The notes: a model not told the origin generated them from the sequence alone. Numbered from the stretch's first letter, positions 13,574-56,966 are shown. The stretch is 64,000 nt of DNA from Patescibacteria group bacterium (GCA_018971305.1 JAGXBC010000004.1:4028-68027); one strand, 5' to 3'. Numbers and translations: made by a program.

Positions 13574-16500
13574 TTATGGAAGCTGGGGCATCGGGATATC
13601 AAGAGTAGAACATCCGAGAAGATTTACCCATCTCTTTGTCGTCTTATAGACATATCCGGTCGGAGTCTGGGCGTTCGGTAATCCGTAGGCAACCCAAGGA
13701 ACAAGAATATCCGTTGCATATTTCAATTGGAACTGTTTCACTGCTTCTCTCGTCTGCTTTCCGAAGAAACCGGTTATCGGCAAATTAATTCCGAGCTCCT
13801 GATTAAGGAATGCCTGCAGAACTTTTACATCATCAACATTGTTCTTGGCACCATACTTCATATAAGAACCAATTGTGTAACCGCAGGAAGTGCTTGCACC
13901 GAGAACTTCACCGGTAGTGCTCGCTCCTAAAACCGCTCCGCCGCCACCACCTCCGCCAACTAAGCCACCACCGCCACCAGGGTTACCTCCTCCGCCAACT
14001 CCAACCGTACCTCCTCCACCACCTCCGCCACCGCCACCCGTGTTAGTATTGCTGTTCTGGACAGTGAAAGATATGGAGGGTGAATTATTGGAGGAATCAT
14101 CGGTCAGAGAACCAAGCTCACTTCCTGTAGCCGTGTTCGTAATCGTCTGACCCGATGTATTAGACCCAACGACTACCGTAAGGGTCATTGTCGCGGATGT
14201 ACCAGGGCTAAGATCGCCAACGTTCCAATCCAACGTACCACCGTTCACAATACTGCCTTGCGAAGATGTGGCACTGGAAAGAGTAATACCGCTCGGCAAT
14301 AAATCGTGGATAACTATATAGGTTGAGGTCGCGGGACCGAGGGCAGTCGCCGTAATTGTGTAGTGTATAGTATCACCGGCAGCCGGATTGAAATTATCAA
14401 CTGTCTTCTCAACCTTCAAATCGGCAACAGTTCCTCCGCTACCTCCGCCGCTCGTCTGGACACTGGTTCCCGGAGCGGTAGATGAGTTATTTCCCGAATT
14501 AGGGTCATTTACGCCGGAAGATTCCGTAACCGTTGCTGAATTAGTTATAGTGTTTCCTCCCTGGCCGACATTAACCGTAGCCGCAATCGTAAGCGTTGAG
14601 CTAGAACCCGCAGACATATCCCCTATTGTCCAAACGCCAGTTGAAGTGGAATAACTGCCAACCGAAGGCGTAGCGGAAACAAAGGTCAATCCCGCAGGAA
14701 GGACGTCTGTTGCCTCAACCGCCGTTGAAGTAGACGGGCCCAGAGCCGAAACAGTTAGTGTATACGTAAGAGTTCCGCCTTCCGTAGTGCTCGTAGAGTC
14801 AACAGTCTTGTCTATTGAAACATCGGCATCCGGAGTTCCACCTCCGCCGCCTCCACCTCCGCCGCCAGAAAGATCGAACTGGGCATTAACGGTAGTATCT
14901 GAATTCATAATAACGTCGCAAGTGGTGGAAGTGCTGCCGGCGCAGGCACCACCGGACCAGCTTACAAATACGGAGCCCGCATCAGCAACCGCAGTAAGAG
15001 TGGTCGTGGAATTGGTCGGGTAAAATACCGGACCGCAACCAGTACCGCAATTAATAAGCCAGCCGTCGGTAACTGTTCCTGTGCCGGTGCCGGACTTCGT
15101 GACAGTTAAGGTATGAGTGGTGTGAACCGGGGGCACAAGAGTGAATTCGGCGTTCACGGTCATATCCGAATTTAAGGTAACGTCGCAGGTGGTGGAGGTA
15201 CTTCCGGCGCAGGCATCACCGGACCAACCGGTGAATGTTGAACTGGCGTCGGGGGAGGCAGTAAGAGTTGTCACAGACCCGGTTGAGTAAAAAACACTGC
15301 AGGTCGTACCACAGTTTATTAACCAACCGTCGGAGACCGTTCCGGTTCCTGTTCCCGATTTGGTTACGGTAAGGGTATTGGTAGTATGGGTAATCGGATT
15401 AGCGGCAAAAGTTACGGCAATCGTATGATCAGTAATAACTCCGGTAAATGTGTAGCTCGTAGATGTGGCAACAGAAGAACTGTCGACTGTAAGGGTGTCA
15501 ATATGATAACCGCCATTCGGGGTAAATGTGAATGTTTGATCAGAGCCGTCGTTCACGATAACCGTACCAGAAGGAGAAATGGAACCGTTAGCGCTGGAAG
15601 TTGCATTTATCGTATGGGTCAAGACGAACTCTGCGCTCACGGAAAGATTAGATGTCATCGTAAGGTCGCAGGTTGGCGAAGAACCGGCACTAGAGCAGTC
15701 GCCTCCCCAGCCGATAAACGTGGAACCGGTAGCCGCAGTAGCAGTCAAGGTAGTAGTAGTATTGGGCTGATAGAAAACCTCACATCTATTATGGCCATTT
15801 CCGCAGTTCAACCAACCATCGGTGATATTACCGATACCGTTGCCGGTAGTCGTAGCGGTGAGAGAATACGTGATAACTGGAGCCGAATTTACAAATAACG
15901 TATAGGCCCGAGAAGTAGATGTCGCTGTGTCAGATACTCCAACAGTAAAGTTGTAAGTGCCAGCCGTTGTCGGTGTTCCAGAAATCGTAGTCGTAGAACC
16001 GGTTGCAGAGGTATCAAGCGTTAATCCTGCCGGCAACGTTCCCGAAGATAAATTCCAAGCGAACGGGTGTCCGTTGGTTCCTGAAACGGTGATTGTTTGA
16101 GAGTAAGCTGTTCCCGATGTCGCGTTCGGTAAAGACGCAGGAGATATAGAAATGGGTTGAATTGGAATGGTGATATTTGCAGAAAATGTTGAAGCTGCGG
16201 AACCTTCTGCACCATTAAAGTTTGCGTGATAAACTTTCACGCAAATAGCATATGTTCCCGGCGTAGAAAATGGGTGAGAGGTACTCCACGTAGCATTAGT
16301 GAATGTACCATTGTTATGTCCGTCTGGTCCACCACTCCCACCTGTAAATACTATAGAACTAAAATTAAATTGCGTTGAGCTAGATGCGTTACATGCTCCC
16401 GTCCAATCCACACCCATGTGTTGATCACTACTCTGCCCAGTATATGGATTTCCGGTCGCGGTACCAGAAAGGTTAACCGTTAATCCGGTAATGGTATAAG

Positions 16501-16627
16501 AACCAGAGATAGAATAACTACTAGCCGCCATCGCTGTTGGCACAGTAACCGCACCGACGCCAAAAAACATCGCTACTGTAAAAAGCGATATACCAACAAT
16601 TCCGACTTTAATTAATTTATTTTTCAT
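13574..16627 (-). CDS. Giant secreted surface protein (1017 aa). N-terminal putative-Ig domain, three divergent InlB B-repeat-like domains, two DUF11/CARDB-like repeats, poly-Gly tracts, and a C-terminal peptidoglycan-binding (PG_binding_1) domain.
   Basis: Signal peptide. Thrice-repeated GTGTV.DGWLNCG...C...F segments. ATDVLPAGLTFVSAT...TLTIAATV (DUF11-like). C-terminal GAKNNVDDVKVLQAFLNQELG...GFFGKQTREAVKQFQ (PG-binding). The (GGN)n codon runs encode G10-G12 tracts. Confidence 0.75.
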   Translation of the reverse strand: MKNKLIKVGIVGISLFTVAMFFGVGAVTVPTAMAASSYSISGSYTITGLTVNLSGTATGNPYTGQSSDQHMGVDWTGACNASSSTQFNFSSIVFTGGSGGPDGHNNGTFTNATWSTSHPFSTPGTYAICVKVYHANFNGAEGSAASTFSANITIPIQPISISPASLPNATSGTAYSQTITVSGTNGHPFAWNLSSGTLPAGLTLDTSATGSTTTISGTPTTAGTYNFTVGVSDTATSTSRAYTLFVNSAPVITYSLTATTTGNGIGNITDGWLNCGNGHNRCEVFYQPNTTTTLTATAATGSTFIGWGGDCSSAGSSPTCDLTMTSNLSVSAEFVLTHTINATSSANGSISPSGTVIVNDGSDQTFTFTPNGGYHIDTLTVDSSSVATSTSYTFTGVITDHTIAVTFAANPITHTTNTLTVTKSGTGTGTVSDGWLINCGTTCSVFYSTGSVTTLTASPDASSTFTGWSGDACAGSTSTTCDVTLNSDMTVNAEFTLVPPVHTTHTLTVTKSGTGTGTVTDGWLINCGTGCGPVFYPTNSTTTLTAVADAGSVFVSWSGGACAGSTSTTCDVIMNSDTTVNAQFDLSGGGGGGGGGGTPDADVSIDKTVDSTSTTEGGTLTYTLTVSALGPSTSTAVEATDVLPAGLTFVSATPSVGSYSTSTGVWTIGDMSAGSSSTLTIAATVNVGQGGNTITNSATVTESSGVNDPNSGNNSSTAPGTSVQTSGGGSGGTVADLKVEKTVDNFNPAAGDTIHYTITATALGPATSTYIVIHDLLPSGITLSSATSSQGSIVNGGTLDWNVGDLSPGTSATMTLTVVVGSNTSGQTITNTATGSELGSLTDDSSNNSPSISFTVQNSNTNTGGGGGGGGGGTVGVGGGGNPGGGGGLVGGGGGGGAVLGASTTGEVLGASTSCGYTIGSYMKYGAKNNVDDVKVLQAFLNQELGINLPITGFFGKQTREAVKQFQLKYATDILVPWVAYGLPNAQTPTGYVYKTTKRWVNLLGCSTLDIPMPQLP

Positions 16628-16899: not shown

Positions 16900-16935
16900 C
16901 TGGGTAAAAAAAGAGGGCTAGAATTTCTAGCCCCA
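16900..16935 (-). terminator. Intrinsic terminator downstream of the PEP-CTERM gene pair.
   Basis: gggctagaa-ttt-ctagcccc hairpin followed by ctcttttttt on the minus strand. Confidence 0.6.
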
Positions 16936-16956: not shown

Positions 16957-17673
16957 CTAATTTTTACGGGATGGTTTCAGTTTTCGCCTGGCAAATCCGA
17001 TCACCGGAATAATTCCGGTGCCGAAAAGCATAATGCTCGTCGGTTCGGGAGTAGAAGTTGGCGGGCTGTATGTACCAGCCACATCCCCCGTTGTGCAAGC
17101 ACCTTGGCAATCCGGGTTCCCGATATTGACATGAGCCGACGCATCCCAACCTTTGTCGTTGAGCGCGAGTACGCTCGCGGCATCAGCGAATGATCCGCTG
17201 GTTGGGGTCAGTAATGCCGACCAGGAAGTTACGGAGTTCGTAAAACCATCGAAGGCATCAACTGTGTTATTGAACACACCGAAGCCGTCAACGGTTCCCG
17301 AACCGCCCAGAGAAAAAGCCGTGTGGCTTCCCCCGCCGGTGTAAGTTATGTTACTAATGGTCACCGGAAGCGACGTATTGAAGTCGACTGCCTGGGCACT
17401 GCCAAGCAGATAAATATACCCGTCGCTGGTTAAACTGGTGAAAGTGATTGTTGCGTCACCTCCGCCGCTCGGAACCGATATGGTTACCCCTACGTACGGC
17501 CCGGTTCCGTAACCAGGCACGTTCGTTGCTGTGAGGTCAAAGGTAATGGAATCCGCTCTCGCCTGGATAGCCGCGAATAACAATACGGCAAACATGGTAA
17601 GGGCGAACGCCGCTGTACTACGGTGTTTTTTCTTCATATCTTGCCTTTCCTCCCTTTGATTGGATTTATTCAA
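16957..17673 (-). CDS. PEP-CTERM sorting-domain secreted protein.
   Basis: Signal peptide, then the C-terminal TPEPTSIMLFGTGIIPVIGFARRKL: PEP motif, TM helix and basic cluster. Confidence 0.7.
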   Translation of the reverse strand: MNKSNQREERQDMKKKHRSTAAFALTMFAVLLFAAIQARADSITFDLTATNVPGYGTGPYVGVTISVPSGGGDATITFTSLTSDGYIYLLGSAQAVDFNTSLPVTISNITYTGGGSHTAFSLGGSGTVDGFGVFNNTVDAFDGFTNSVTSWSALLTPTSGSFADAASVLALNDKGWDASAHVNIGNPDCQGACTTGDVAGTYSPPTSTPEPTSIMLFGTGIIPVIGFARRKLKPSRKN

Positions 17674-18233
17674 GATATCAACCTCCTGCGCAGGAACCCG
17701 GCCATCCCTAGAAGGCCGGTGCCGAACAGGGCCAAACTCGCTGGTTCAGGAACTGCTGTGATAGTAGCATCACCGCTTGTTGCAATCCCCCCGGAAGTCA
17801 GTGATATCACAAAAGTCTGGCCAGTCCCGGCGGAATTTCCAAAGTATGTTTGGAAATCACCGGCTGGAAGAGACCAGAAAGTGTTGAAGGATAGGCCCAC
17901 CGTCGACCCGAAAGAACTCGCGTTGAAGCTGTCGATGGTTCCCGAAATAACAGTAGACCCGTCTGTGAGAGATGCAGTTCCAGCAGCGGTATCGAAAACC
18001 AGAAGAAAGTGCTGGTTCAGGAATGCCGCAGGGCCCTGGTCCATAATCATAGTAAGGCCGGTTGTGGAGTAGTTGCTCCCCGAAGTGAGGACGGTACCAC
18101 TGCAATCCGCAGATGAAGCCGGGGCCGTGCAATAAAAGTCAGCCACCGAATCCGCCTTCGCCGCTGGTGCCGCCAGCACGGAAAACACAGGAACTAACAA
18201 AGCCAAAACCAGCGCAATCTTCTTCATATTCAT
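17670..18233 (-). CDS. PEP-CTERM sorting-domain secreted protein.
   Basis: Signal peptide, then the C-terminal AVPEPASLALFGTGLLGMAGFLRRR, a canonical PEP-CTERM. 4-nt overlap with the downstream paralogous-type gene. Confidence 0.75.
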   Translation of the reverse strand: MNMKKIALVLALLVPVFSVLAAPAAKADSVADFYCTAPASSADCSGTVLTSGSNYSTTGLTMIMDQGPAAFLNQHFLLVFDTAAGTASLTDGSTVISGTIDSFNASSFGSTVGLSFNTFWSLPAGDFQTYFGNSAGTGQTFVISLTSGGIATSGDATITAVPEPASLALFGTGLLGMAGFLRRRLIS

Positions 18234-18472
18234 ATTTCAAAGACCTCCACCTAGAATTCCTAAGACACATCTATACTTGCGTATTTGGTGTGCCCAAGGT
18301 AATTGGCATGCTAACATTTATACTATATAAATGTCAAGAGGTTATTGGCGCCTGCAAAATAAGCAGATAATGATCTATTACAATATTTCGGGAAAGGAAA
18401 AATAAAAGCGGCACAATTATACTCGGCAGAAAGGAGAAAATAAAAAAATGCGCTTGTTTATTTTCTCCGAGC

Positions 18473-18516: not shown

Positions 18517-20358
18517 TTATTGCGCCGCTTTGCCCGCAACCTTCCGGGTCTTATCAGCCAGGAATCCCTCTACCTGCATGTCAACCATCTCTTTATAAGT
18601 AGAGCAGGTCTGCATCAGCTCTTCGTGCGGCCCGTTGCCGATGATTTTTCCATCTTCAAGGACAAGGATTTTATCCGAGTGGCGAACCGTAGAGAGACGG
18701 TGAGCGATGATAAGCGTTGTTCTTACTTTTATCAATTCGTTGATTCCTTCTTGAACTTTCTTTTCGGTGATGCTGTCCAACGCGCTCGTCGGCTCATCCA
18801 GAACAACGATGCGCGGATCTTTAAGAATCGCCCTGGCTATTGCGAGACGCTGTTTCTCTCCACCGGAGAGACGCACTCCCCTTTCACCTATTAAGGCGTC
18901 GTAGCCCTTAGGAAGCCTCTGGATAAACTCGTCTGCATGAGCCTGTTTAGCTGCCCTTACTACTTGCTCTCTCGTCGCCCAAGGATCTCCGTAGGCGATA
19001 TTTTGCGCTACCGTTTCGTTATACATCGCGTTCTCCTGCAGAACGGTGCCGACGTATTTTTTTATCTCTTCGGGATTGAAGCTGTTCAAGTTCGCGCCAT
19101 CAATGGTTATTATTCCGCTCGTGGGATCAACCAGGCGCGTGAGCAACGTCATGATGGTCGTCTTACCCGAACCGGAGTGCCCGACTAAAGCCACGGTTTT
19201 CCCCGCGTCTATCGTGAACGAAACATCGTTCAGAGAAAAGGCGCTCTTCTCCTGAGGGTAAGAAAAGGAAACATGCTCAAATTCAACCCTCCCCTGCACT
19301 TCCGAAACTTTTGTAGGAATCCGGGGAACCGTTATCACATCCTCTTCGGCAAATAGACCGAGCAACCGCTCTATGTGCTGAGAACGCCGCGTATACTGAG
19401 GCAGAATATCTCCCAAGAGGTGTAAGGGGGTAAGAATTTCGTTCAAGAGCCCCATAAACATGAAGAGTGTTCCGAGCGTGATAGAACCGCTCTGGACGAA
19501 AAATATTCCTGCGCCCAAAACGAGGAAGCGCGCGATGGAATCCGGGTTAAGCATTTCCACTATGCGCCATTTTTTATTAAGTGAGAATTGGGAAGCCGAA
19601 GCACGGTCGCTATAAGCTTTGTGGCGCTCCACGAAAATTTCTTCGTGGGGATTCAATTTATAAGTCACGACGTTAGAGATCTGATCGGAAAGGTGCTCGT
19701 GCTTTTCTTCCCACATTTTATTTACCCTTCTCTGCTCGTCCTCGTACTTATTCACGTGCCTGATAATGAACCACAAAGTTGGCGGTATAACGGAAACGGC
19801 GATAAGCGTCATCTGCCAGCTCACAATCAGGGCGATGGCAAGCATGCCGATAAATCCGAGTATGGCCGAAGAGAATATTCCGAGCCACCAGTTCGTCATT
19901 TCCCAAGTGCTTACATCGGCGTCGTCAATTATTTTCGTGTAACGGCTGGAGTGCTCGGACATGTGCTTCGCGTAATCTAGGCGCAAGAGGCGCCGATAGC
20001 CGCTGATATTCGCTTCCTGCGAACTGATATTTCCTATCTTCCAGACGAGGAACGAGGTCTGCGCGCTTGCGACATTGACTATAACCGCGAGAACAAACCA
20101 GAAAGCAACCACCATAACCAAGGTTTGCGTCTGTGAAGCAAGAAAACCGCCGCTGACAAGGCCATTGGTCAAAGTATCCACAACAACCTTATAAAGATAA
20201 GGTTCGGTAAGACGCGCCGCCACGCTCACGAAAAGCAGGGTCGCTAAAACTGCCATGGACCGCTTTTGTTTGAAAGCGAGCTTAAAGATATATCTCAAAT
20301 AATCCGGTATGAATTTTTTTGTTTTGCGGGTATCCATTGTTTTTATTTTATTTTGCAT
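18517..20358 (-). CDS. ABC transporter, fused permease/ATP-binding type (MsbA/lipid A exporter-like). Track ORF extends to 20424 via a TTG inside a leader hairpin; likely ATG start at Met23.
   Basis: Six-TM ABC_membrane domain, Walker A GHSGSGKTT, signature LSGGEKQRLAIARA, Walker B VVLDEPTSALD. AAGGAG SD before Met23. Confidence 0.85.
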   Translation of the reverse strand: MQNKIKTMDTRKTKKFIPDYLRYIFKLAFKQKRSMAVLATLLFVSVAARLTEPYLYKVVVDTLTNGLVSGGFLASQTQTLVMVVAFWFVLAVIVNVASAQTSFLVWKIGNISSQEANISGYRRLLRLDYAKHMSEHSSRYTKIIDDADVSTWEMTNWWLGIFSSAILGFIGMLAIALIVSWQMTLIAVSVIPPTLWFIIRHVNKYEDEQRRVNKMWEEKHEHLSDQISNVVTYKLNPHEEIFVERHKAYSDRASASQFSLNKKWRIVEMLNPDSIARFLVLGAGIFFVQSGSITLGTLFMFMGLLNEILTPLHLLGDILPQYTRRSQHIERLLGLFAEEDVITVPRIPTKVSEVQGRVEFEHVSFSYPQEKSAFSLNDVSFTIDAGKTVALVGHSGSGKTTIMTLLTRLVDPTSGIITIDGANLNSFNPEEIKKYVGTVLQENAMYNETVAQNIAYGDPWATREQVVRAAKQAHADEFIQRLPKGYDALIGERGVRLSGGEKQRLAIARAILKDPRIVVLDEPTSALDSITEKKVQEGINELIKVRTTLIIAHRLSTVRHSDKILVLEDGKIIGNGPHEELMQTCSTYKEMVDMQVEGFLADKTRKVAGKAAQ

Positions 20359-21255: not shown

Positions 21256-21893
21256 TTTTCAGAATTTTTTAAAAGCTCGTGGAACTTTTCTTTAAGTTTA
21301 TCCATTTTGGGATTAATGACAATCTGGCAGTATGGCGCCGAGGTATTGTTCTTATAGTATTGTCTGTGATAATCTTCGGCATCATAAAAGTCACCAAGCG
21401 GTACAATTTCCGTGACTACTTTTGGGCCGGATTTATTAAGTTCTTTGATAAATGCTTCCGCCGATTTTTTCTGTTCATCTGTCGCATAGAAAATCGCCGA
21501 GCGATACTGGGTACCCGTATCCGCTCCCTGGCGGTTTAAAGTCGTGGGGTCATGCGTGGCAAAAAAAACCGTCAGCAAGTCGCTATAGGAAATCTTTTCC
21601 GGGTTGTATTCTATTTTAATCGCCTCAGCATGACCTGTTCTGCCGGTGCAGACTTGTTCGTAGGTTGGATTTTTTGTGGTGCCGCCAGTATATCCGGGCA
21701 TAACGGAAACAACGCCCTTCAGTTCTTCAAAAACCGCTTCTGTGCACCAAAAACAGCCTCCCGCGAAAACAGCTCTTTGAATTTCGTTTTCCATAAAATT
21801 ATTAGCCGAAGGTAAAAGTATAGGCATCCAAACCAGGAGAATCAATAATAATTTCCAGCGTATGCTCGCTTGAACCATCGGAACACACGCCAT
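21252..21893 (-). CDS. msrA: Peptide-methionine (S)-S-oxide reductase MsrA, possibly exported. N-terminal hydrophobic segment; the catalytic domain starts at Met34 (21794). A start at 21893 would overlap the tlpA 3' end by 92 nt.
   Basis: AVFAGGCFWCTEAVFEELKGV...GYTGG...NPTYEQVCTGRTGHAEAIKIEYNP is the MsrA GCFWC signature. Upstream residues MVQASIRWKLLLILLVWMPILLPSA look like a Sec signal. Confidence 0.85.
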   Translation of the reverse strand: MACVPMVQASIRWKLLLILLVWMPILLPSANNFMENEIQRAVFAGGCFWCTEAVFEELKGVVSVMPGYTGGTTKNPTYEQVCTGRTGHAEAIKIEYNPEKISYSDLLTVFFATHDPTTLNRQGADTGTQYRSAIFYATDEQKKSAEAFIKELNKSGPKVVTEIVPLGDFYDAEDYHRQYYKNNTSAPYCQIVINPKMDKLKEKFHELLKNSEK

Positions 21894-23022
21894 TGGGAGA
21901 ACAATTGCCGCGATTATCTATTATATTGTATAACCTACTCTCCTGGATCGTAACTTTTCCGTTGTGAACATCGCTTCCCGCCGCGGCGGCAGAAACCGGT
22001 TGGCCGTCTTGAAAAATTTCTATCGTTGCACCTTTCGGAGCGTCGGCGACAAAATATACCCTGGCTGCGTTGTACTTATATATGATTTTGGTTCCAACTG
22101 CATTGTTAGTCGCATACTCATTCTGGAAATTCCAGCTGCCGGTAAGATACAAACTATTAAGACTTATATTTTGCGGCACCTGCAGATTCTGGCTGCCCGC
22201 AGTTCCCTGAACCCCGTTCGCGAGATACTGATTTCGGGCCGCGCCAAAATAAGTTTCGGGACTTAAAAATCCACCGGAGATATTGCTCTGCGGCACGGAA
22301 ACAGTTGATGTCAGCATCTCTCCTTGCGCAACGCCAAGAACCCTGCTCCGTTCAGCAAGTAATTTCTGTATCTCGGTCTCTGTTTCGCCGTAATTCCCTT
22401 CTCCTATCTGGTCGTGCACGATATAACCGGCAAGATCAATAAGATATTCGTGCGGCCAATATTGGTTGGAGTAAGCAGTCCAAGTTCCGTAGTCGCTGTC
22501 TAAAACAACCGGGTATTTAATTCCAAATTTCTCCGTCGCCGCTTTCACGTTGTCGTACCTTTTTTCAAAATCAAATTCCGGAGTATGAATTCCGACTATT
22601 TCCAATCCCTCGTCGCGATACCTTTGATACCAAGAATTAAGGTACGGAAGCGTGCGGATGCAGTTGATACAGCTATATGTCCAAAAGTCCAAAAGAATAA
22701 TTTTTTTGCCGATGAGGTTTTTTAGCAGGAACGAAGAACTGGCGTTTATAAAATCTGTCGGATTAGAGATCTCTATTGCCGGCTGATATCCAGCTTTTTT
22801 ATCTGCGGCGGCAATGTCAGAGATGTTCAGGCTGGGTTTTACCGCTGAATTTTTGCCGGAAGAGGCCAACACGTCAATAGAAGATGTAGCCGCATCTATG
22901 TTTAGCGCCTGAGAAGGATTGCTGTTATCGGTGGCACCAGGACGAGCCTTCGTACTTTCAATGTACCAAATGGAAACGATGATTAAGACCACAACGATTA
23001 TTAACGCTAAATTCTTTTTCAT
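21802..23022 (-). CDS. Membrane-anchored thioredoxin-like thiol-disulfide oxidoreductase (TlpA/ResA-like redoxin) with a C-terminal extension domain.
   Basis: N-terminal TM. Redoxin fold with LLDFWTYSCINCIRTLP (CxxC). Lies between ccdA and msrA. Confidence 0.75.
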   Translation of the reverse strand: MKKNLALIIVVVLIIVSIWYIESTKARPGATDNSNPSQALNIDAATSSIDVLASSGKNSAVKPSLNISDIAAADKKAGYQPAIEISNPTDFINASSSFLLKNLIGKKIILLDFWTYSCINCIRTLPYLNSWYQRYRDEGLEIVGIHTPEFDFEKRYDNVKAATEKFGIKYPVVLDSDYGTWTAYSNQYWPHEYLIDLAGYIVHDQIGEGNYGETETEIQKLLAERSRVLGVAQGEMLTSTVSVPQSNISGGFLSPETYFGAARNQYLANGVQGTAGSQNLQVPQNISLNSLYLTGSWNFQNEYATNNAVGTKIIYKYNAARVYFVADAPKGATIEIFQDGQPVSAAAAGSDVHNGKVTIQESRLYNIIDNRGNCSPNGVCSDGSSEHTLEIIIDSPGLDAYTFTFG

Positions 23023-23024
23023 TT

Positions 23025-23744
23025 TTATAAATTATGATTTAAAAGAAAATTATTTACGAAATCAAAATTAGCAACCAGCTGAAGGCTTTGCGTAAACACG
23101 AGCACGCCGAGGACAACGAGAACCGCTCCGAACACTTTTGTTACGTATTCAAGTTTATCGGCATAACGATTAATAAAGGATGATGCCCGGGCGGCAAGAG
23201 CTCCGACAACAAGAAACGGAATCCCTAATCCTATCGCGTAAGACAGCAAAAGATAGAAGGCCTCTCCCGGAGCTGAGGCCGCCAATCCTAAAATCCCACC
23301 AAGAATAGGACCGACGCACGGCGTCCAGCCGGCGGCGAAAGCGAAACCGAACGCGAGCGAAGTAAGATAACGCGAACGAAAACCGAAACCAACGCGCATT
23401 TTATGGTCAAACTCCAAAAAAGAGATTTTGAAAAATCCCATTAAATATAGTCCGAAGAAAATAATTAGCGCCCCGCCGATGCGCGCCAGCCAATCCTGCA
23501 CCGCGTAAGCGGCATGGGAGAGAACGCTATTCAGAAGTACGCCAAGAATGGCGAAGACAACCGAGAACCCGATTACAAAAAATAAACTGTTCAAAAAAAT
23601 AGCGGAGCGAGACGACTTAGAAGCGCCCGATGAAGATTCGCCGGCAAGATAGGCCAAAAATCCTGGGATGATAGGCAAAACACACGGCGACAAAAAAGAA
23701 ACTATTCCTGCCACAAATGCGACGACTATGGGAATATTGAGCAT
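23025..23744 (-). CDS. ccdA: Cytochrome c-type biogenesis protein CcdA (DsbD transmembrane-domain family).
   Basis: Six TM helices with the two conserved Cys in LSPCVLP and GWTPCVGP. Confidence 0.85.
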   Translation of the reverse strand: MLNIPIVVAFVAGIVSFLSPCVLPIIPGFLAYLAGESSSGASKSSRSAIFLNSLFFVIGFSVVFAILGVLLNSVLSHAAYAVQDWLARIGGALIIFFGLYLMGFFKISFLEFDHKMRVGFGFRSRYLTSLAFGFAFAAGWTPCVGPILGGILGLAASAPGEAFYLLLSYAIGLGIPFLVVGALAARASSFINRYADKLEYVTKVFGAVLVVLGVLVFTQSLQLVANFDFVNNFLLNHNL

Positions 23745-24944: not shown

Positions 24945-26381
24945 TTATTGCGTTTTAATAATATTTATATAACTTCTCGTTTTAGGACCAAAGTAACCTG
25001 CCGGCGGATCAATACCAACGCTCCCCTGGTATTCGGAGAGAGCTTTCTGAGTCAATAATCCGAAGTAACCGGTGTTTCCGGCTACACCCAGATTGCGTGC
25101 CGCTGAACCTATATCCTGACCCACAAGAAATTTCTGCAATTCCGCCACGTCAGCTCCAGACGAACCAAGTGTCAGATTTCGGGAAAATCCAGACACAGAA
25201 GGGCTCGGCTGAACTACTGCCGAACCCGAATCTGTGCTACTGGTGGCATTTACGCTTGTCGCCGCCGCAGAAGAAAGTTGTTTCTCCTGAACTTGTGCCA
25301 TTAACTGCTGCAGAAGTGCCGTAAGGCTTTGTATTTGTTCCTGCAGTGAGGCCGAATCGGCCTGAGGAGAAGATGACGACGAAGAAGTTGTTGATATGGA
25401 CGTTGTCGTTGACAAATCAGTAGCAGAGGTTTGCGCCGAAGAAGTCGCGCCAGACATGGGCACAACAGAATTAGTAAAAGCAGCTGGTCCGTTTCCGGAA
25501 ACATTTATCGCGCTGACACTAAATAAATAAGACACGCCATTCGTCAAACCGTCGATAATCGCCGAAAGAGTGCTGCTGCCCACCGTAAGAGAACTGGAGG
25601 CGCTTGATGTAACAATGTATCCTGTAAGGCTTCCTATATTTACATAGGCCGGCGACCAACTCACCGTGACCTGGCCATCACCGGCAATCGCTTTCACGCT
25701 TTGAGGAGCGGATGGCAGAGGCGGTATTATTGTAAAAACATGCTGCGACGGATTTCCTGTGCCGGCGGAATTAATAGCATAAACACGGTAGTCATAAGTT
25801 ACTCCCGGAATAAGATTGGTGTCGGTGTAGGCAGTATCGGCGGAATTGGTATTAGACACGATCGTTCCGCCATTGCGCTCCACCCTGTATCCGGTAACGG
25901 AATCCGTGCTTAAGGCGGCACTCCAGGATAATTCTATTTTTGAGATGGATATAGGAATTGCAGAGAGGTTCTGCGGAATATTTGGAAGATATGCAATAGC
26001 AGGGGCTGGATAAGTAGCGGCATATGCTTGATTTGCAGAAACGGGACCGGTACCATCAGAGTTAATCGCTGATATTCTGTAACTATAAGTTGTACCGGGG
26101 GCGAGATTGGTATCCTGATAACTCACAACCGAACCCGTATCCGCGACTATAGTAGTGAAACCGCCCCCAACAGGAGACTCTCTTTCAATTTTGTATCCGG
26201 TTACTGCTGGATCAGCGATAACGCCAGGCCAAGACAGATCAATTTCCGAAGAATTTATAACATTCAAAGTGATAACGCCAGGAGCATATGTAGGCGTAGC
26301 CGCATAGGCGCTCAATAACGGAAAGGCGATAAAAAACGCCGGTAAAAAAACAAATAATAAAATTTTGTCGTCTAATTTCAT
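24945..26381 (-). CDS. Secreted protein with three fibronectin type III domains, a Ser-rich linker, a coiled coil and a C-terminal PG_binding_1 domain.
   Basis: Signal peptide. Repeated ...SW....TGY.IER...YSYRISAIN FN3-like units. C-terminal GSSGADVAELQKFLVG...GYFGLLTQKALSEYQ (PG-binding). Confidence 0.7.
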   Translation of the reverse strand: MKLDDKILLFVFLPAFFIAFPLLSAYAATPTYAPGVITLNVINSSEIDLSWPGVIADPAVTGYKIERESPVGGGFTTIVADTGSVVSYQDTNLAPGTTYSYRISAINSDGTGPVSANQAYAATYPAPAIAYLPNIPQNLSAIPISISKIELSWSAALSTDSVTGYRVERNGGTIVSNTNSADTAYTDTNLIPGVTYDYRVYAINSAGTGNPSQHVFTIIPPLPSAPQSVKAIAGDGQVTVSWSPAYVNIGSLTGYIVTSSASSSLTVGSSTLSAIIDGLTNGVSYLFSVSAINVSGNGPAAFTNSVVPMSGATSSAQTSATDLSTTTSISTTSSSSSSPQADSASLQEQIQSLTALLQQLMAQVQEKQLSSAAATSVNATSSTDSGSAVVQPSPSVSGFSRNLTLGSSGADVAELQKFLVGQDIGSAARNLGVAGNTGYFGLLTQKALSEYQGSVGIDPPAGYFGPKTRSYINIIKTQ

Positions 26382-34231: not shown

Positions 34232-35428
34232 TTAAGAATAAATTCTTATCAGTTCGTCGAATTTGGACATTCGTTCCTTTACCGGTGCGCCTATTTTTAC
34301 GCCATATGCTCCACCGGCGCGGGCAAGATGGATTATAAAATTATCAGCAGTTTCTCCGGAGCGGTGGGAAACGATGCATTTTATCCCAAGCTTGTGCGCG
34401 GCCTTCATTGCCGCGCAGGCCTCGCTTACCGTTCCTATTTGATTCGGTTTGATGATAACGCCGCTTATCAATTTACCCCGCCCAGCTGCAGAAATAGCCG
34501 CGGGGTTCGTTACGGTCAAGTCATCACCTACTATTAATTTCTTTTTCTCAGCCGCCAAAAGTTCGGCAAATCCTCCGCCGTCGTTCTCGTCGAAGGGGTC
34601 TTCAACGGAAACAAGCATCGGAGCCTGGCGAAAATATCTTTCGTAGGTTTTTAAAAGTTCTTCCCGGGAGAGACGCGCGCCTGCAAACATATACCAACCA
34701 CCTTTATAAAATCCAGAGGCCGCGGCATCAAGCCCGATTTGGAAATCTTTCCGCAGGCGGAATTTCTTAATGAGCTCTCCTAAAATATGTATCGGTTCGA
34801 AATTGTTTTTGAAATCCAAAGAATATCCACCCTCATCACCTATGGGAAGATTTTTCATCTTGTATCTCTTGCCCAAAAAGTCCCCAAGTTTTTTATAAAA
34901 ACCAACAAGTGTCTCAACGCTTTTCTCCACTGGCCGCCCAATTCTCACTACAATCATATACTCCTGGATATCCAGATCGTTATTTGCATGCACGCCGCCG
35001 TTTATGACATTGGAAAATATAAATGGCACGCGCTTAATGTTTTTGCCGGGGAAAAATTCTTTTTGCAATATCTGCCATGGCTCTTTTTTATGTTCAAAAG
35101 CCAATCCGCGCGTAAAAGCGATGGAGGCACCGAGCATAACATTGCCGCCAAATTTCTTTTTGTCCGACGTACCATCCAGCTTTAGAAGAAAGCGATCGAA
35201 CTTAGTAATGGAGATAAATCTCTTGCCGCGAAGTTTCTTGTTAAGTAATTCTCCGGCTTTCTTGGCCGCTTTCGGCGGTAATACAAATACTTCCCGTTCT
35301 CCGCGGCTTTTTCCGGAAGGCACCTGACCGAAAAATTCTTCGCCGCTGCCGTCAACAATGCAAACCTCAACAGTCGGCTCGCCGCGTGAGTCGAAAATTT
35401 CTCTGACAAGTAAATTTTTTACCGTCAT
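34232..35428 (-). CDS. eno: Enolase (phosphopyruvate hydratase).
   Basis: REIFDSRGEPTVEV N-terminal motif and IVSHRSGETAD active-site region. Confidence 0.9.
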   Translation of the reverse strand: MTVKNLLVREIFDSRGEPTVEVCIVDGSGEEFFGQVPSGKSRGEREVFVLPPKAAKKAGELLNKKLRGKRFISITKFDRFLLKLDGTSDKKKFGGNVMLGASIAFTRGLAFEHKKEPWQILQKEFFPGKNIKRVPFIFSNVINGGVHANNDLDIQEYMIVVRIGRPVEKSVETLVGFYKKLGDFLGKRYKMKNLPIGDEGGYSLDFKNNFEPIHILGELIKKFRLRKDFQIGLDAAASGFYKGGWYMFAGARLSREELLKTYERYFRQAPMLVSVEDPFDENDGGGFAELLAAEKKKLIVGDDLTVTNPAAISAAGRGKLISGVIIKPNQIGTVSEACAAMKAAHKLGIKCIVSHRSGETADNFIIHLARAGGAYGVKIGAPVKERMSKFDELIRIYS

Positions 35429-38182: not shown

Positions 38183-39043
38183 TTATCTATTTATAAGACT
38201 GGGTTGTTCGTAGGGGTCGGCGGGGTCATCAATCGTTCCGCAAAATTCTGCAGCAATCGATAAGTATTCATGGACAACGAGCCAATCAAATCTGCCCTGT
38301 ACATCCTTCATCTTCCTTTCTGTATCAATGTTCAAGTTGCGAAAAGTGAAAAATAGGTCGCTTAGTCCAGGGAGAACTCTTCCTTCAAGGCCTCCAGCAA
38401 CACCGAGACCCAGAGAACTGTTTTCCTGATGAATGACGCTAAGATATCTCATTGCTTTCTCGGCATCCAAAAGTTTTCCGGTACCGCCGCTCATATCAAA
38501 GAGAATGTCGGAAACAAATCCGCCGAAAGAAGCGATGTGCCTCGCAAGTTCATTCGGGGCTTTTTCACCAAAAACATTTTCCAGTTCGCTTACGACAGCG
38601 GACGAGGTCTGAAGGATTATGCGAACATTTGGATAGTTAACGCAGTACTTCGCGAGCTCGCTTATAATACGCTCCCGTACGGCTGGCCGGTTGATACTGA
38701 GATCATTGAGTTGGAAACCATGAAGGCGCCTTCCACCCAAATCTGTCAGCCTAAGCAGCTGATCGCTTAGGGTATTTGGATTATTCGTGTTGTAATGAAT
38801 CAGGTTCAAAACCTTGGCAGAGTCATCAGTTCTGAAGACATGTTGTATCCGGCTTCCTGGAGCATAACGTTTCTCTTGAAGACTCTTATCGCACAAAAGA
38901 GAGTTCTGATCTGCACTAACTCCGATCATTAGAGGCCTCTTGTTGCGCACACCCTTAAGCTGCTCTGACCAAAACGCAATCGTGTTTTCAACCTCCAACG
39001 GCCAGAGATAACCGTTAATTCCTACATACGGAGCAAAACGCAT
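38183..39043 (-). CDS. Hypothetical protein. The C-terminal half has a PRAI(TrpF)-like TIM-barrel phosphate-binding motif.
   Basis: FDMSGGTGKLLD...LGVAGGL resembles TrpF D.SGGTG..FDW...LAGGL. No other trp genes nearby, so function unassigned. Confidence 0.45.
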   Translation of the reverse strand: MRFAPYVGINGYLWPLEVENTIAFWSEQLKGVRNKRPLMIGVSADQNSLLCDKSLQEKRYAPGSRIQHVFRTDDSAKVLNLIHYNTNNPNTLSDQLLRLTDLGGRRLHGFQLNDLSINRPAVRERIISELAKYCVNYPNVRIILQTSSAVVSELENVFGEKAPNELARHIASFGGFVSDILFDMSGGTGKLLDAEKAMRYLSVIHQENSSLGLGVAGGLEGRVLPGLSDLFFTFRNLNIDTERKMKDVQGRFDWLVVHEYLSIAAEFCGTIDDPADPYEQPSLINR

Positions 39044-46193: not shown

Positions 46194-47105
46194 TTAAAAT
46201 GGGATCGTTTTTTCTGCTACCTCTTTGGCATCTATATTTAATGTCAATTTTTTAGTAGTCTCCAATCCCCACGTAATAGTAAAAAGGTGTTTTTGTGACA
46301 TATTTAGCAAAGAAATATCGTAATCTAACCCTATTTCTCCTTTATCGTAAATTGTATAAAAAATTTTTAATTTATTATCCACGTCTTTAACAATAGAAAT
46401 GCTACCGCTGCTATTTTTTTCATCAAGAAATATTACCTTCTTATCGTCAGCGAAAGAAATATCGCTCGGTGTCCAAAAAAAGAAGGTGCCCTCCTTGATG
46501 TTTAGGATATTTGTTATTAAATCATCTTTAGTCCAGTCATATAAACTAGCACCGTTCGATTTAAAATTTAAACTTGTAAATAGTCGATTTTTAATAAAGC
46601 CGTTAGCGAAATAAGATAAAATATAATTTTTATCTGACGAATCTTTAATGAACAAATCTAGATTCCATCCATATGGTCCATCTTCAAGGTCGGTCATAAA
46701 TGCTGGCTGTAGGGGGTATACATTGATTTCTGTATCCTTCCCAGGATAAATTGGGTATGCATTATTATAACTATTCCGGGCTTCATTACTAAATGAATAT
46801 CCGCATATATAGATAGTTGAAGCTCCAAGATTTGTTAATTTAACTCGGTTGGTTGCAAAATCAAATTGGGCTTCTATTTGCGGTAATTCGGATTTCGATA
46901 GATTAATAATTACATTTTGTTGAACTATAAGATTTTTTATGGATTGGAATACGGTTTGGTTGGGAGAAATTATAAATCCAACCAAGGTCAATATAGCCCC
47001 CACCACGGCTATCCACTCTGCTTGTGACTGCCCCCTCAAGGCTAATACAGCAAACACCACCGTCAAACTGCCCCCGACTATTTGTAGCCACCACCCAAGA
47101 CTCAT
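46194..47105 (-). CDS. Hypothetical membrane-anchored protein encoded in a markedly AT-rich (about 30% GC) segment. Probable horizontal acquisition.
   Basis: N-terminal 2 TM. GC content far below the window average. No motif. Confidence 0.5.
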   Translation of the reverse strand: MSLGWWLQIVGGSLTVVFAVLALRGQSQAEWIAVVGAILTLVGFIISPNQTVFQSIKNLIVQQNVIINLSKSELPQIEAQFDFATNRVKLTNLGASTIYICGYSFSNEARNSYNNAYPIYPGKDTEINVYPLQPAFMTDLEDGPYGWNLDLFIKDSSDKNYILSYFANGFIKNRLFTSLNFKSNGASLYDWTKDDLITNILNIKEGTFFFWTPSDISFADDKKVIFLDEKNSSGSISIVKDVDNKLKIFYTIYDKGEIGLDYDISLLNMSQKHLFTITWGLETTKKLTLNIDAKEVAEKTIPF

Positions 47106-47112
47106 AAGTTTC

Positions 47113-47910
47113 TTATTTAATATTCTTTATATACCTACATTTCGGAAAATTTGAACAACCCCAAAATTGTTTACCGGCATAATCCCCTTGATGCGCCGTT
47201 CGAAGCTCTAGCTTACCACCACATTGAGGACAAATTTTTTCGTCTTGAGTTGCAGCCGGCTGTTGCGCTGGCAAATCCTCCGGCACGGCGTCTTTGCCAT
47301 ACGAAAGCCTATAGTATTTGATCAACTTCAAGCCATCGATAAGTTCTATTCTCGGATTTCCTTCAGCAGCCTTCTCTGCCATCATAGTGAAATTACCCGT
47401 TGTAACAAAAAATCCCTTTTCTGCCGGATTATTAATATTGGTAATCGCCCCAAGAAAATCGCGAACTTCGTGCGGGGTTACTTCTCTGGTTATAAACTTT
47501 TTACACTGAATAAAATATTTTTTGCCGTCCTTGTGTGCGATAACATCTATTCCCCCATCGTTTGCCCCACCAACAACCTCCGCTTTATATCCCAACCCTT
47601 CAAACATATCTGCAACCTCCTTTTCAAACTGCGCCGGCGACATACCTTTTAACATGTATAAAATCTTGTCGTCGCTTAAAAACGCAAGACCCCTGTTGTC
47701 GTGCGCTCTTTTCTTTAGAACAAAATATAAAATTACGCCGACAACCAAAACTACGGTGGCGATAATTCCATATAGAATGGCTTGCTCGCGATGTGTATAT
47801 GCCCAACCAAACAAACCAAGAATAAAAAGACCAATAATGCCGCTGGCAATGTCAACAAGCTCTTCTTTTGGAGATTTTCGCCTATAGTAATAACGCCTCC
47901 TTCTTGCCAT
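47113..47910 (-). CDS. Membrane-anchored restriction endonuclease-like (Mrr_cat) protein with a C-terminal topoisomerase-type C4 zinc ribbon.
   Basis: N-terminal 2 TM. Mrr catalytic-core-like GGANDGGIDVIA...QCKKF. C-terminal CPQCGG...WGCSNFPKCRY. Confidence 0.7.
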   Translation of the reverse strand: MARRRRYYYRRKSPKEELVDIASGIIGLFILGLFGWAYTHREQAILYGIIATVVLVVGVILYFVLKKRAHDNRGLAFLSDDKILYMLKGMSPAQFEKEVADMFEGLGYKAEVVGGANDGGIDVIAHKDGKKYFIQCKKFITREVTPHEVRDFLGAITNINNPAEKGFFVTTGNFTMMAEKAAEGNPRIELIDGLKLIKYYRLSYGKDAVPEDLPAQQPAATQDEKICPQCGGKLELRTAHQGDYAGKQFWGCSNFPKCRYIKNIK

Positions 47911-53361: not shown

Positions 53362-55482
53362 TTATAACTTTTCCCTCCGCAGCAAAACGGCGTTCACGGC
53401 AACGATAACCGTACTCAAAGACATGAACACGGCCGCGAGCGCGGGCTCAAGCAAGATTCCGCGGGAGGCAAGAACTCCGGCGGCCAAAGGCAGGGCAACA
53501 ACGTTATAGCCGGTTGCCCAAAATAAATTCTGTACCATTTTGTTGTATGTAAGTCGGGAGAGTTTGATGATTTTCAGAATATCGCGCGGGTCGTTCTTCA
53601 CTAAAATTATTCCGGCGGATTCTATCGCAATGTTAGTTCCCGCGCCGATGGCAATTCCCAAATCTGCCTGAGTAAGTGCCGGAGCGTCGTTAATACCATC
53701 GCCAACCATAGCGACCTTCAATCCCCGCTTCTGCAATTCTTTTACTTTGGATGCTTTTTCGCCCGGCAGAACTTTTGCGAAATATTCGTCTATACCAAGT
53801 TTTTCGGCAACCCAGCTGGCTACATCTTCGGAATCGCCGGTTATCATCGCCGTTCTTACACCGGCTTTCTTTAGTTTCACTATCGCTTCGCGTGATTCTT
53901 CGCGGATTATATCAGCCAAAGCAATGGCTCCGAGTAATACTCCGCCGGAGACGATATAAATTATTGTCTTTCCTTCTTTAGACAATACGGCGAGCCGAGA
54001 TTTCATTTTATCGGCAACCGCGCCGCTCAATATAGCTTCACCACCAACTAAAACATCCTGGCCATCAACCAATCCTCTAACACCTTTGCCGGGAATGCGC
54101 TCAAAATTTTTTACTTCAGCAATTTTGAGATCGCGCTTTTTCGCTTCCGCAACTATCGCCCGCGAAACGAAGTGCTCTGAATTTGAATCAACCGCAGCGG
54201 CCAGCCGCAAAACTTCCCCATCGTTCTCGGCAATAATATCTGTTACTCCATATTCGCCTTTAGTCAGGGTTCCCGTCTTATCAAAAAGAACAATATTTAT
54301 TTTCCTTGCTCGCTCCAACGAGGCTCGCTGCCTGATAAGAAATCCATTACGAGCCGCCATCGTAGTGGAGATCGCGGCAACAAGTGGTATGGCGAGTCCC
54401 AAGGCGTGCGGGCAAGCTATCACGAGAACAGCGACTAGCCGCGTTAAAGCGAAAGAGATTCCGGCCGAAGCAAGGAGCCAGGAAACCAAAGTTATAATTC
54501 CCGACGCCACGGCGATTATGGTGAGATAGAATGCCGCCTTGTCCGACAAAATCTGCAATCGCGATTTGGAGGCCTGCGCTTCTTTTATAAGCCGCATCAC
54601 TCCGGCCAAAAAAGTTTTCTCGCCGATTTTTGCCACGCGAATTTTTAGCGAGCCGTCACCGTTCGTCGTTCCGGCTATTACCTCGGCGCCCGTATTCTTT
54701 ATAACCGGCTTTGATTCGCCGGTGATAATTGCTTCGTTTACGTCCGACTTGCCGTCCGCCACAATCCCGTCCGCGGGAATTTTCCCTCCGGGCCGTACGA
54801 ATACCAAATCACCCTCTTTTAATTCCATGAGCGGAACGGTTTCACTCTTATCGCCGCGAATCACCTCGGCTACGTCCGGTAAAAGTTTGGATAATTCCTT
54901 AAGAGCTCCCTGGGCACCCTGGACAGATTTCATTTCTATCCAATGTCCCAAAAGCATCACAGCGATAAGCGTTGTCAGCTCCAAAAAAAGAGTCTGCGTG
55001 CCACCCGCCAAAACCGATATGGCGCTGTAAACGTAGGCGGTCGTAATGGCCAAGGCGATGAGCGTCATCATCCCTGGCAATTTGGCCTTAAGTTCACGCC
55101 AGGCACTTGCGATAAAAACCCAGCCGCAATAGAAAAATACTATTGAGCCGATCAATAACTGGAGATAGCGCGAACCGGGAAATTGCGGCGCTTGCCAGTT
55201 GAAAAACGTCTGCGGTAAATCCGAATAAACCAGAACCGGAACGGTTAAAACCAAACTCACCAAGAATTTTTTTAGAAAATCCTGGGTATGATGCCCGGCA
55301 TGTTTGTTGAAATCATCTTTGCTTCCTTCATGTTCGGAATGCTTGCTGTGTTCTATACTGCGTGCCTCGTGTTTTACGGCCACGAGCGCCATCCCGCAAT
55401 CCGGACACATACCGGGAATTTCCTGTTTAATCTCCGGATGCATAGGGCAGGTATAAATTTTGTTAACTAATTCCTGGTTCAT
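53362..55482 (-). CDS. copB: Copper-translocating P1B-type ATPase (CopB-like, CPH motif) with an N-terminal CxxC...CxxC metal-binding domain and a His-rich stretch.
   Basis: YTCPMHPE...CPDCGM, His-rich HEARSIEHSKHSEHEG..HAGHH, TGES, CPH, DKTGTLT, GDGINDAPAL. Confidence 0.9.
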   Translation of the reverse strand: MNQELVNKIYTCPMHPEIKQEIPGMCPDCGMALVAVKHEARSIEHSKHSEHEGSKDDFNKHAGHHTQDFLKKFLVSLVLTVPVLVYSDLPQTFFNWQAPQFPGSRYLQLLIGSIVFFYCGWVFIASAWRELKAKLPGMMTLIALAITTAYVYSAISVLAGGTQTLFLELTTLIAVMLLGHWIEMKSVQGAQGALKELSKLLPDVAEVIRGDKSETVPLMELKEGDLVFVRPGGKIPADGIVADGKSDVNEAIITGESKPVIKNTGAEVIAGTTNGDGSLKIRVAKIGEKTFLAGVMRLIKEAQASKSRLQILSDKAAFYLTIIAVASGIITLVSWLLASAGISFALTRLVAVLVIACPHALGLAIPLVAAISTTMAARNGFLIRQRASLERARKINIVLFDKTGTLTKGEYGVTDIIAENDGEVLRLAAAVDSNSEHFVSRAIVAEAKKRDLKIAEVKNFERIPGKGVRGLVDGQDVLVGGEAILSGAVADKMKSRLAVLSKEGKTIIYIVSGGVLLGAIALADIIREESREAIVKLKKAGVRTAMITGDSEDVASWVAEKLGIDEYFAKVLPGEKASKVKELQKRGLKVAMVGDGINDAPALTQADLGIAIGAGTNIAIESAGIILVKNDPRDILKIIKLSRLTYNKMVQNLFWATGYNVVALPLAAGVLASRGILLEPALAAVFMSLSTVIVAVNAVLLRREKL

Positions 55483-55654
55483 TGTTGTTTAGAAAAATTA
55501 TTTTCAATTGCATGGCTTATAACCTCAAGATTGCAACTTTTGTGCTCCCGGCACCACGCCTCGCATTTTTCCGCCCATTCTTTATCTTTATACGCGGAAC
55601 CGCATTCGGAGCAGATAAACGTTTGCGGCGATGTCTGTTTATTGTTTTGCTTCA
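55479..55654 (-). CDS. Small Cys-rich ORF (59 aa) not in the ORF track. Its stop overlaps the copB ATG (ATGA). Candidate metal-binding chaperone or regulator.
   Basis: Hand translation: MKQNNKQTSPQTFICSECGSAYKDKEWAEKCEAWCREHKSCNLEVISHAIENNFSKQQ. Open for 59 codons. ATGA overlap with copB. Confidence 0.4.
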
Positions 55655-56133
55655 TAGCTTATGACGATCTGGTCCTTGTCGCGCAAGATGGTGTTTTCGT
55701 AGGTATCCACCTGTGATCCGTTGACCATCACTTTAATTATATGACTATCATCAATGGTATTGTCGAGAATCTGGTTTTGGTTGAAGGTTTTATCCCACAC
55801 CGCGAAGAAGTCGGCGAGGGTGAAATCCCTTGCTTCCGGCGATTCTACGTGAAGCGTGCCGCTCGTGTCATGCGTGTGAATCGGATGCATACACGCGAGG
55901 GTGATGCCGATATTCGCGGGGATGTCCTGCTGCTGGCCATTGATGAGGATTTGGAGATGCGGATGGATGTGGAATGTCGTAAACATATCCGTCGTACAGC
56001 TTAGCGCGAGTTGCCGGTTCGTTTGGTTGGAGACGGAATGGTTGCCCCACCAAAAAAGCCCAGCGACGAGCGCAATCGTGATTCCAGTAATCCACCACCC
56101 CGTGTATGATTTTTTGTAAGAATATTTGCTCAT
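55639..56133 (-). CDS. His-rich exported protein (TM anchor) upstream of copB. Candidate periplasmic copper-binding protein. Track ORF to 56211; Met27 start preferred.
   Basis: FHIHPHLQ...CMHPIHTHDTSGTLHVE His/Cys cluster. N-terminal TM. Confidence 0.45.
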   Translation of the reverse strand: MSKYSYKKSYTGWWITGITIALVAGLFWWGNHSVSNQTNRQLALSCTTDMFTTFHIHPHLQILINGQQQDIPANIGITLACMHPIHTHDTSGTLHVESPEARDFTLADFFAVWDKTFNQNQILDNTIDDSHIIKVMVNGSQVDTYENTILRDKDQIVISYEAKQ

Positions 56134-56143
56134 GTTTTTAGTG

Positions 56144-56827: not shown

Positions 56828-56966
56828 CCCGATTAGAGATAGGAAACGCAGGCGTTTCCGTATCTGATTATGTCTTTGCATAAGATATTCAATTAATTTC
56901 TTTTTATGTTTCCCGCTAGGATACCGTTGGGCATCTCTAACGGGATTCATGGTTTTATTTTTTTAT

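Follow-up and report, generated by a model that had tools for sequence, protein, structure and literature searches.

Two PEP-CTERM protein genes in tandem in a Patescibacteria genome

Two adjacent genes for small PEP-CTERM proteins, here called A and B, lie on the minus strand of a 64,000-nucleotide stretch of DNA (the window) from a Patescibacteria group bacterium (GCA_018971305.1, JAGXBC010000004.1:4028-68027). PEP-CTERM sorting signals have since 2006 been described as found only in bacteria that have a periplasm as well as an outer membrane (PMC1569441; Haft 2023 preprint), whereas Patescibacteria are described as a monoderm phylum (PMC11665869). A preliminary description of this DNA had called the setting of the two tails unusual, and the juxtaposition of PEP-CTERM tails with the genome of a phylum described as monoderm bears this out. 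The proteins themselves are already recorded and named in NCBI (MBU6501040/39, MDE2015511/12, MDE2226873/72). What sets them apart is their host: in the literature searched, we found no report that links an exosortase or PEP-CTERM proteins to the Candidate Phyla Radiation (CPR), to Patescibacteria, or to monoderms.

The two genes and their C-terminal tails

Gene A (17670..18233, minus strand) encodes 187 amino acids and gene B (16957..17637, minus strand) 226 amino acids, as called from the open reading frames, from hidden Markov models (HMMs) and from the NCBI records. The outer limits of 16957 and 18233, within which two reading frames had previously been placed, proved exact, and both frames are confirmed on the minus strand. 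For B, the default call starts at a TTG codon at 17673 and yields 238 amino acids. We consider the ATG at 17637 (226 amino acids, MKKKHRS...) the most likely start and disfavour the TTG, because a ribosome-binding site, GGGAGGAAAGG (17644..17654, minus strand), can be read from the sequence 6 nt upstream of this ATG and because the NCBI protein also has 226 residues. The ribosome-binding site of A, GGTGGAGG (18244..18251, minus strand), was read in the same way and lies 10 nt 5’ of its ATG. Further upstream, a promoter-like site (18308..18337, minus strand; TTGACA-18 nt-TAGCAT with a TG) matches the sigma-70-like consensus at 10/12 positions and is a consensus match only, and 23 nt past the stop codon of B an intrinsic-terminator-like hairpin of nine pairs, five of them G-C (16914..16934, minus strand), is followed by the T-run CTTTTTTT. 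With a promoter-like site, ribosome-binding sites and a terminator that belong to the pair itself, and with a separate hairpin past the end of the upstream ABC exporter gene, A and B look like a self-contained two-gene transcription unit.

By inspection of their hydrophobic N-termini, the signal peptide of A ends in ...AAKA and that of B in ...QARA, in each case ahead of DS, and the resulting A-x-A-D pattern at the end of the signal peptide is conserved across both families. Protein A contains two cysteines, at positions 35 and 44. Glycine, serine, threonine and alanine together make up a fraction of 0.53 of the mature domain of A and 0.50 of that of B, compared with 0.31 in the proteins of the window. 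The N-terminal domains had been described as Gly/Thr/Ser-rich and unknown; the composition agrees with the first half of this statement, whereas the second half does not hold, as each domain falls into a recognisable, albeit unnamed, family of small PEP-CTERM proteins. A and B can be aligned with each other only across their last 42 residues, and they represent two different families that share one sorting tail and are otherwise unrelated.

The tail of A spans residues 160-187 (17673..17756, minus strand) and reads AVPEPASLALFGTGLLGMAGFLRRRLIS, while the tail of B spans residues 196-226 (16960..17052, minus strand; TPEPTSIMLFGTGIIPVIGFARRKLKPSRKN) and reads STPEPTSIMLFGTGIIPVIGFARRKLKPSRKN. 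Both are located at the extreme C-terminus and follow the order of motif, hydrophobic helix, and basic cluster; the maximal hydropathy over 14 residues is 1.71 in A and 2.14 in B, and the last 12 residues include three arginines or lysines in A and six in B. Scoring with TIGR02595, which the preliminary description had proposed as a check on the PEP-CTERM signals it saw on both reading frames, places A (25.9 bits) as well as B (17.9 bits) above the cutoff of 16. With the Pfam model PF07589 (cutoff 20.7), A lies above the threshold at 30.2 bits and B marginally under it at 20.6 bits. In a leave-one-out HMM of the tails of homologs from double-membrane (diderm) bacteria, A ranks 1st of 20 (42.5 bits) and B 14th of 20, in the middle of the range (25.3 bits). 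The tail of B is 0.50-0.64 identical to tails of the A family, compared with at most 0.50 to tails of its own family, which is a weak hint that the two may have been tuned to one enzyme within the genome.

A motif scan of all reading frames of the window returned the tails of A and B only, and no further PEP-CTERM-like tail was found in the ~76 kb of this organism covered by the window and its flanks. Because the members of both N-domain families all end in PEP-CTERM or VPDSG-CTERM tails and the window holds just these two motif matches, the tails are not due to chance. One candidate for an LPXTG tail was rejected: the sole LPXTG-like match in the window (38214..38429, plus strand, 71 amino acids) runs antisense to the reading frame at 38183..39043 and has no hydrophobic helix past the motif.

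Neither protein belongs to the named NCBIfam families of small PEP-CTERM proteins, which are of similar size and score beyond the tail or in it. Residues 70-184 of A align to residues 139-260 of PepA (NF033554), known from flocculation (E 2e-8); however, with a cutoff of 80 bits, A reaches 34.3 bits and B has no match. NF038129 aligns to residues 117-184 of A, that is, somewhat past the tail, and here A scores 35.6 and B 10.7 bits against a cutoff of 65 bits. The scores for the exosortase-dependent surface protein XDP1 (NF041927; cutoff 125 bits) are 30.4 bits for A and 20.6 bits for B and come from the tail region only.

Relatives and origin of A and B

A profile search of 1.84 billion representative sequences resolved the A family into 161 clusters at E<=1e-10, nearly all of them 180-210 amino acids long and aligned from end to end. 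A word-indexed search recovered few relatives of A, at 32-42% identity. Two long contigs with such relatives encode full-length RpoD, FabF/ACP, a GH31 enzyme, PilZ, PQQ, and MacB, a gene content that points to large-genome bacteria. The AlphaFold2 model of A is unreliable (pLDDT 58).

For B, 30 relatives of 214-261 amino acids and 31-46% identity were found. They share the conserved motifs GPYA, ITFTSLT, VDGFGVFN, FDGF, and AAAHIF, and their tails are of either the PEP-CTERM or the VPDSG-CTERM type. AlphaFold2 predicts an all-beta sandwich for B (pLDDT 83.6), and comparison of this model with the PDB by Foldseek gave no significant match, nothing being better than E 0.03 or a TM-score of 0.3. 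One contig with a B relative carries genes for PagL, an outer-membrane beta-barrel protein, LAB_N, and enzymes of the tricarboxylic acid cycle; others encode two-component systems, VWA, and SLT. We also scanned 185,579 species, each represented by a single genome, for motifs taken from a five-sequence alignment of the B family. The 11 loci obtained belong to Chthoniobacterales, Terriglobales, Nitrospiraceae, Burkholderiaceae, Candidatus Acidiferrales, Verrucomicrobia, Candidatus Udaeobacter, Acidobacteriota, Caulobacteraceae, and one metagenome-assembled genome (MAG) labelled "bacterium"; none of the 11 is from Patescibacteria.

The B family also touches on the VPDSG-CTERM/XrtC system of the Verrucomicrobiota. 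Many members of its N-domain family end in VPDSG-CTERM or VPDGG-CTERM tails, and in Candidatus Udaeobacter (contig L024) an XrtC gene (PF09721, E 3e-48; annotated by the Joint Genome Institute as exosortase C, VPDSG-CTERM-specific) is found at a distance of 7.5 kb from a B homolog. In contrast, the tail of B in the window is of the PEP type (TPEP), and XrtC is absent from the window. The presence of two sorting tails, PEP-CTERM and VPDSG-CTERM, on one B-type N-domain family (contigs L013 and L024) amounts to an exchange of tails while the passenger domain stays the same. In a separate observation, genes for PilZ-domain proteins of the c-di-GMP-binding type are found directly 5’ of an A homolog and of B homologs on unrelated diderm contigs (L010:5034-5924, L011:7186-7575, L012:9269-9658); this adjacency hints at a regulatory link in the diderm homologs, one that is absent from the window.

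The relatives of A and B belong to Verrucomicrobiota, Acidobacteriota, Nitrospirota, and Proteobacteria, all of them soil bacteria with a double membrane. Given that both families reside in diderm soil phyla and that the copies in the window are the sole ones seen in a Patescibacteria, taxonomic distribution argues that A and B were likely acquired laterally by this lineage. The same distribution bears on the earlier suggestion of a distinct envelope-sorting arrangement: with the closest relatives in diderm soil bacteria and none in other Patescibacteria, an arrangement typical of the lineage is unproven, and two imported substrate genes agree better with the evidence.

Composition lends no weight to this conclusion. 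Although the guanine-cytosine (GC) content over A and B rises to 52-55% in a sliding profile, compared with 46% for the window, the excess resides at codon position 2 and reflects amino-acid composition, while the GC content at third codon positions (GC3) is 0.55-0.56 in A and B and lies within about one standard deviation of the window mean (0.495, standard deviation 0.058). On these grounds, composition was discarded as evidence of horizontal transfer. Nor is the transfer demonstrably recent, since the closest identity among 5.8 billion proteins is at most 46% for A and B, since GC3 is near that of the host, and since the DNA beside the pair showed neither meaningful repeats nor genes of mobile elements. 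The flanking intergenic DNA is AT-rich, with 29% GC at 16600-16899. In none of the homolog contigs are A-like and B-like genes adjacent, which suggests that the tandem arose in or near this lineage and leaves co-transfer as a pair unsupported.

Genomic context and the search for an exosortase

The proteins of the window are found on a 297-kb contig of MAGs that NCBI labels as Patescibacteria (three MAG accession sets), one of these being GCA_028865265.1 (contig JAGWKQ010000002.1). The order A-B recurs in assemblies of three runs from the Sequence Read Archive (SRA), SRR32006849, SRR32006850, and SRR32006840, with flanking DUF11 and/or ABC genes wherever the contig extends far enough. The contig from SRR32006840 (L032) holds the ABC exporter, A, B, and the DUF11 protein; the one from SRR32006849 (L001) begins just 5’ of A and continues through B to the DUF11 protein; and the one from SRR32006850 (L002) has A and B between a truncated upstream and a truncated downstream gene. 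Protein A is identical across the three assemblies, and the adjacent B has the same length in each. Because the gene order recurs across independent assemblies of three sequencing runs, a chimeric join is very unlikely.

The tripartite tails of A and B, both of which pass TIGR02595, are those of the PEP-CTERM/exosortase system (EpsH, XrtA) of Gram-negative environmental bacteria (PMC1569441). The present case differs from that system in its host, a member of a phylum described as monoderm, in the two copies seen, and in the absence from the 64 kb window of an exosortase, of an exopolysaccharide (EPS) locus, and of PrsK/PrsR/PrsT. Specifically, Pfam searches covering every large multi-transmembrane protein of the window identified Nramp, EamA, DUF5317, CAP, ABC transporter, and P-type ATPase proteins and no exosortase, and a phmmer search with XrtC as the query against the six-frame translation of the window gave no match at E<1. 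Likewise, no exosortase was found in ~12 kb of flanking DNA, of which 10 kb extend the right end (L028, from GCA_028865265.1) and 1.9 kb the left end (L030). A homology search with the Udaeobacter XrtC is uninformative on the CPR, as all 120 matches listed were Udaeobacter-like XrtC proteins.

Downstream of B, the window encodes a surface protein of 1017 amino acids (13574..16627, minus strand) with He_PIG, Flg_new_2, and two DUF11 domains and a C-terminal PG_binding_1 domain (31 bits, cutoff 23). Runs of 9-11 glycines are found between its domains and ahead of PG_binding_1, and it contains four InlB-B-like repeats. Anchoring by a C-terminal PG_binding_1 domain had been proposed for this protein and for an fn3 protein of 478 amino acids (24945..26381); it stands for the former, whereas the latter scores 20.1 bits and falls under the cutoff. 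Upstream of A lies the ABC exporter gene (18517..20337, minus strand; 606 amino acids in the Logan gene call), in which Pfam detects fused membrane and ATPase domains, and an AT-rich hairpin can be seen in the sequence past its stop codon (18433-18468). The pilus system had been described as simplified and monoderm-like, in agreement with the T2SSE, T2SSF and N_methyl pilin genes present and with the lack of a secretin. The window also encodes an M23 peptidase, and these surroundings, that is, the pilus cluster, the peptidase, the PG_binding_1 surface protein and the fn3 protein with its weaker match, fit a CPR cell. No outer-membrane, lipopolysaccharide, or EPS genes were seen in the window.

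Several further features of the window deserve mention. In GC content, the gene at 46194..47105 (minus strand, 303 amino acids) ranks far below every other gene in the window at 0.345 (GC3 0.316), and no Pfam model reaches its cutoff for it; the adjoining gene (47113..47910, minus strand) encodes a restriction endonuclease of the Mrr type to which a topoisomerase-type zinc ribbon is fused, and the two (46194..47910) may constitute a foreign or defence islet. Genes for extracytoplasmic thiol-redox proteins are dense at 20.4-24.0 kb and 53.3-61.2 kb and include DsbD/CcdA-type membrane proteins (23025..23744 and 59951..60688), a thioredoxin-like lipoprotein (21802..23022), a DSBA/Thioredoxin_4 protein (57508..58266), and MsrA and MsrB, with a copper P-type ATPase (53362..55482) beside them. 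In GCA_028865265.1, the corresponding region (L028:16886-20351) differs from the window (53362..56950) in the interval from the DSBA gene to the copper ATPase: genes of 227 and 164 amino acids occupy the place of genes of 268 and 87 amino acids in the window-type contig L029, and the ATPase has 693 rather than 706 residues, a difference that represents strain-level variation. An rve integrase gene is found ~10 kb past the right end of the window. Finally, a protein of 398 amino acids (34232..35428, minus strand), annotated by NCBI as "hypothetical protein", looks like a divergent enolase judging from its N-terminal sequence.

Proposed surface display and possible processing

We lean towards a reading in which A and B, small secreted proteins of the PEP-CTERM type from two unrelated families, were acquired laterally, are made from one transcription unit and are held by default through an uncleaved tail that acts as an anchor. 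Both proteins would be exported by the Sec pathway and cut by signal peptidase after AKA in A or ARA in B. Given the physical properties of the tail, its helix and the arginine/lysine cluster would then serve as a stop-transfer anchor in the sole membrane of the cell, with the Gly/Ser/Thr-rich beta-sandwich domain presumably facing outwards. Without an outer membrane, topology alone would result in surface display next to the neighbouring peptidoglycan-binding surface proteins, and a monoderm cell would require no further enzyme. If an exosortase were present, it could instead cut at the PEP motif and transfer the protein to an acceptor, as ArtA does in archaea.

Single-membrane bacteria usually anchor surface proteins through the LPXTG/sortase route, which relies on an analogous tripartite C-terminal signal. 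A and B differ from this arrangement in that they carry a PEP motif, which adjoins the helix with no spacer in between, and the surface proteins next to them use PG_binding_1. The organism that carries A and B is an ultrasmall bacterium of the CPR and probably lives as an epibiont on host bacteria. Given the surface-protein neighbourhood of A and B and the role of small PEP-CTERM proteins in floc formation in other bacteria, a contribution to adhesion, or to matrix contact with the host bacteria or their exopolysaccharide, is plausible, albeit speculative.

A number of considerations weigh against an uncleaved anchor. In surveys, PEP-CTERM proteins strictly co-occur with EpsH/exosortase, even in genomes with a single PEP-CTERM protein (PMC1569441). 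The ~76 kb we inspected come from a genome assumed to measure ~1 Mb, and the pattern-based genome scan may overlook divergent homologs in the CPR. The PEP motifs of A and B have not eroded, and their tails give no sign of relaxed selection. A GC3 near that of the host points to long residence or else to a moderate-GC donor, and after long residence an intact motif would suggest that it is still read by an enzyme. These observations lead to the main alternative, the exosortase sorting system that the preliminary description had taken the tails to imply: a complete exosortase/PEP-CTERM system in a monoderm, in which an enzyme encoded elsewhere would cut both tails and transfer the proteins to an acceptor, be it a lipid, a polysaccharide, or the wall. 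The strict co-occurrence and the host-like codon composition speak for it, as do the retention of two unrelated substrate families next to each other, both with tails that are intact and score high, and, as a weak hint, the closeness of the B tail to those of the A family. The PGF-CTERM/ArtA system of Haloferax volcanii adds a precedent for tail processing by an exosortase-family enzyme in a single-membrane cell, the final anchor being a lipid (Haft 2023 preprint); it is archaeal, however, acts on another motif and other substrates, and no such enzyme was found in the DNA of the window. The empty searches of window and flanks count against a complete system, as do the lack of an EPS locus near A and B, the lack of Patescibacteria among the genomes with B relatives, and the lack of a literature link to the CPR or monoderms. 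Moreover, genomes with the system contain a median of eight substrate proteins, and one or two are rare (PMC1569441), compared with the two tails in our ~76 kb. On balance, we regard a complete system as a possible rather than a probable explanation: that the genome encodes a matching exosortase outside the DNA inspected is the minority expectation, and cleavage of the two tails by such an enzyme is likewise possible but less likely than not. Possible, but no more likely, is the bolder version in which imported substrates and an exosortase together provide working PEP-CTERM sorting without an outer membrane, a bacterial parallel to anchoring by archaeosortases that may embed the epibiont in the exopolysaccharide of Verrucomicrobiota or Acidobacteriota hosts by means of host-like matrix proteins.

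Two other explanations would deprive the pair of a function in this organism altogether. A and B could be passengers of a recent transfer, unexpressed or decaying, as neither family is native to the phylum and the AT-rich flank (29% GC) is what one would see at an insertion site. Yet both reading frames are intact, each preceded by a strong ribosome-binding site, and the pair has a promoter-like site ahead of it and a terminator past its end. A is identical and B equally long in the three SRA-run assemblies, and three MAG accession sets carry both proteins. The lack of a close donor, with no identity above 46% among 5.8 billion proteins, makes a recent transfer less obvious, and GC3 near that of the host and the absence of flanking repeats or mobile-element genes from the DNA searched point the same way; non-functional passengers are thus improbable. 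An error of assembly or binning, by which a diderm fragment was joined into a CPR contig, would account for the raised GC content over A and B (52-55% versus 46%) and for the fact that all their relatives are in diderm bacteria. However, the junctions between ABC exporter, A, B, and DUF11 protein are found in the assemblies of three runs and in the NCBI MAGs, and the GC excess sits at codon position 2 and not in GC3, so we give this explanation hardly any credence.

To our knowledge, the final destination and the anchor chemistry of PEP-CTERM/exosortase proteins are still unknown, and the pair described here could be informative whichever way the tails are used. If an exosortase exists in this organism, its tiny monoderm genome would separate the role of tail and enzyme at the inner membrane from any step at an outer membrane, and it would provide a mechanistic link between bacterial exosortases and archaeosortases. 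If there is none, as our preferred reading of an uncleaved anchor has it, an epibiotic member of the CPR would be reusing surface-protein genes from the phyla it probably lives on, with the tail as a membrane anchor only, which would bear on how CPR bacteria attach to their hosts.

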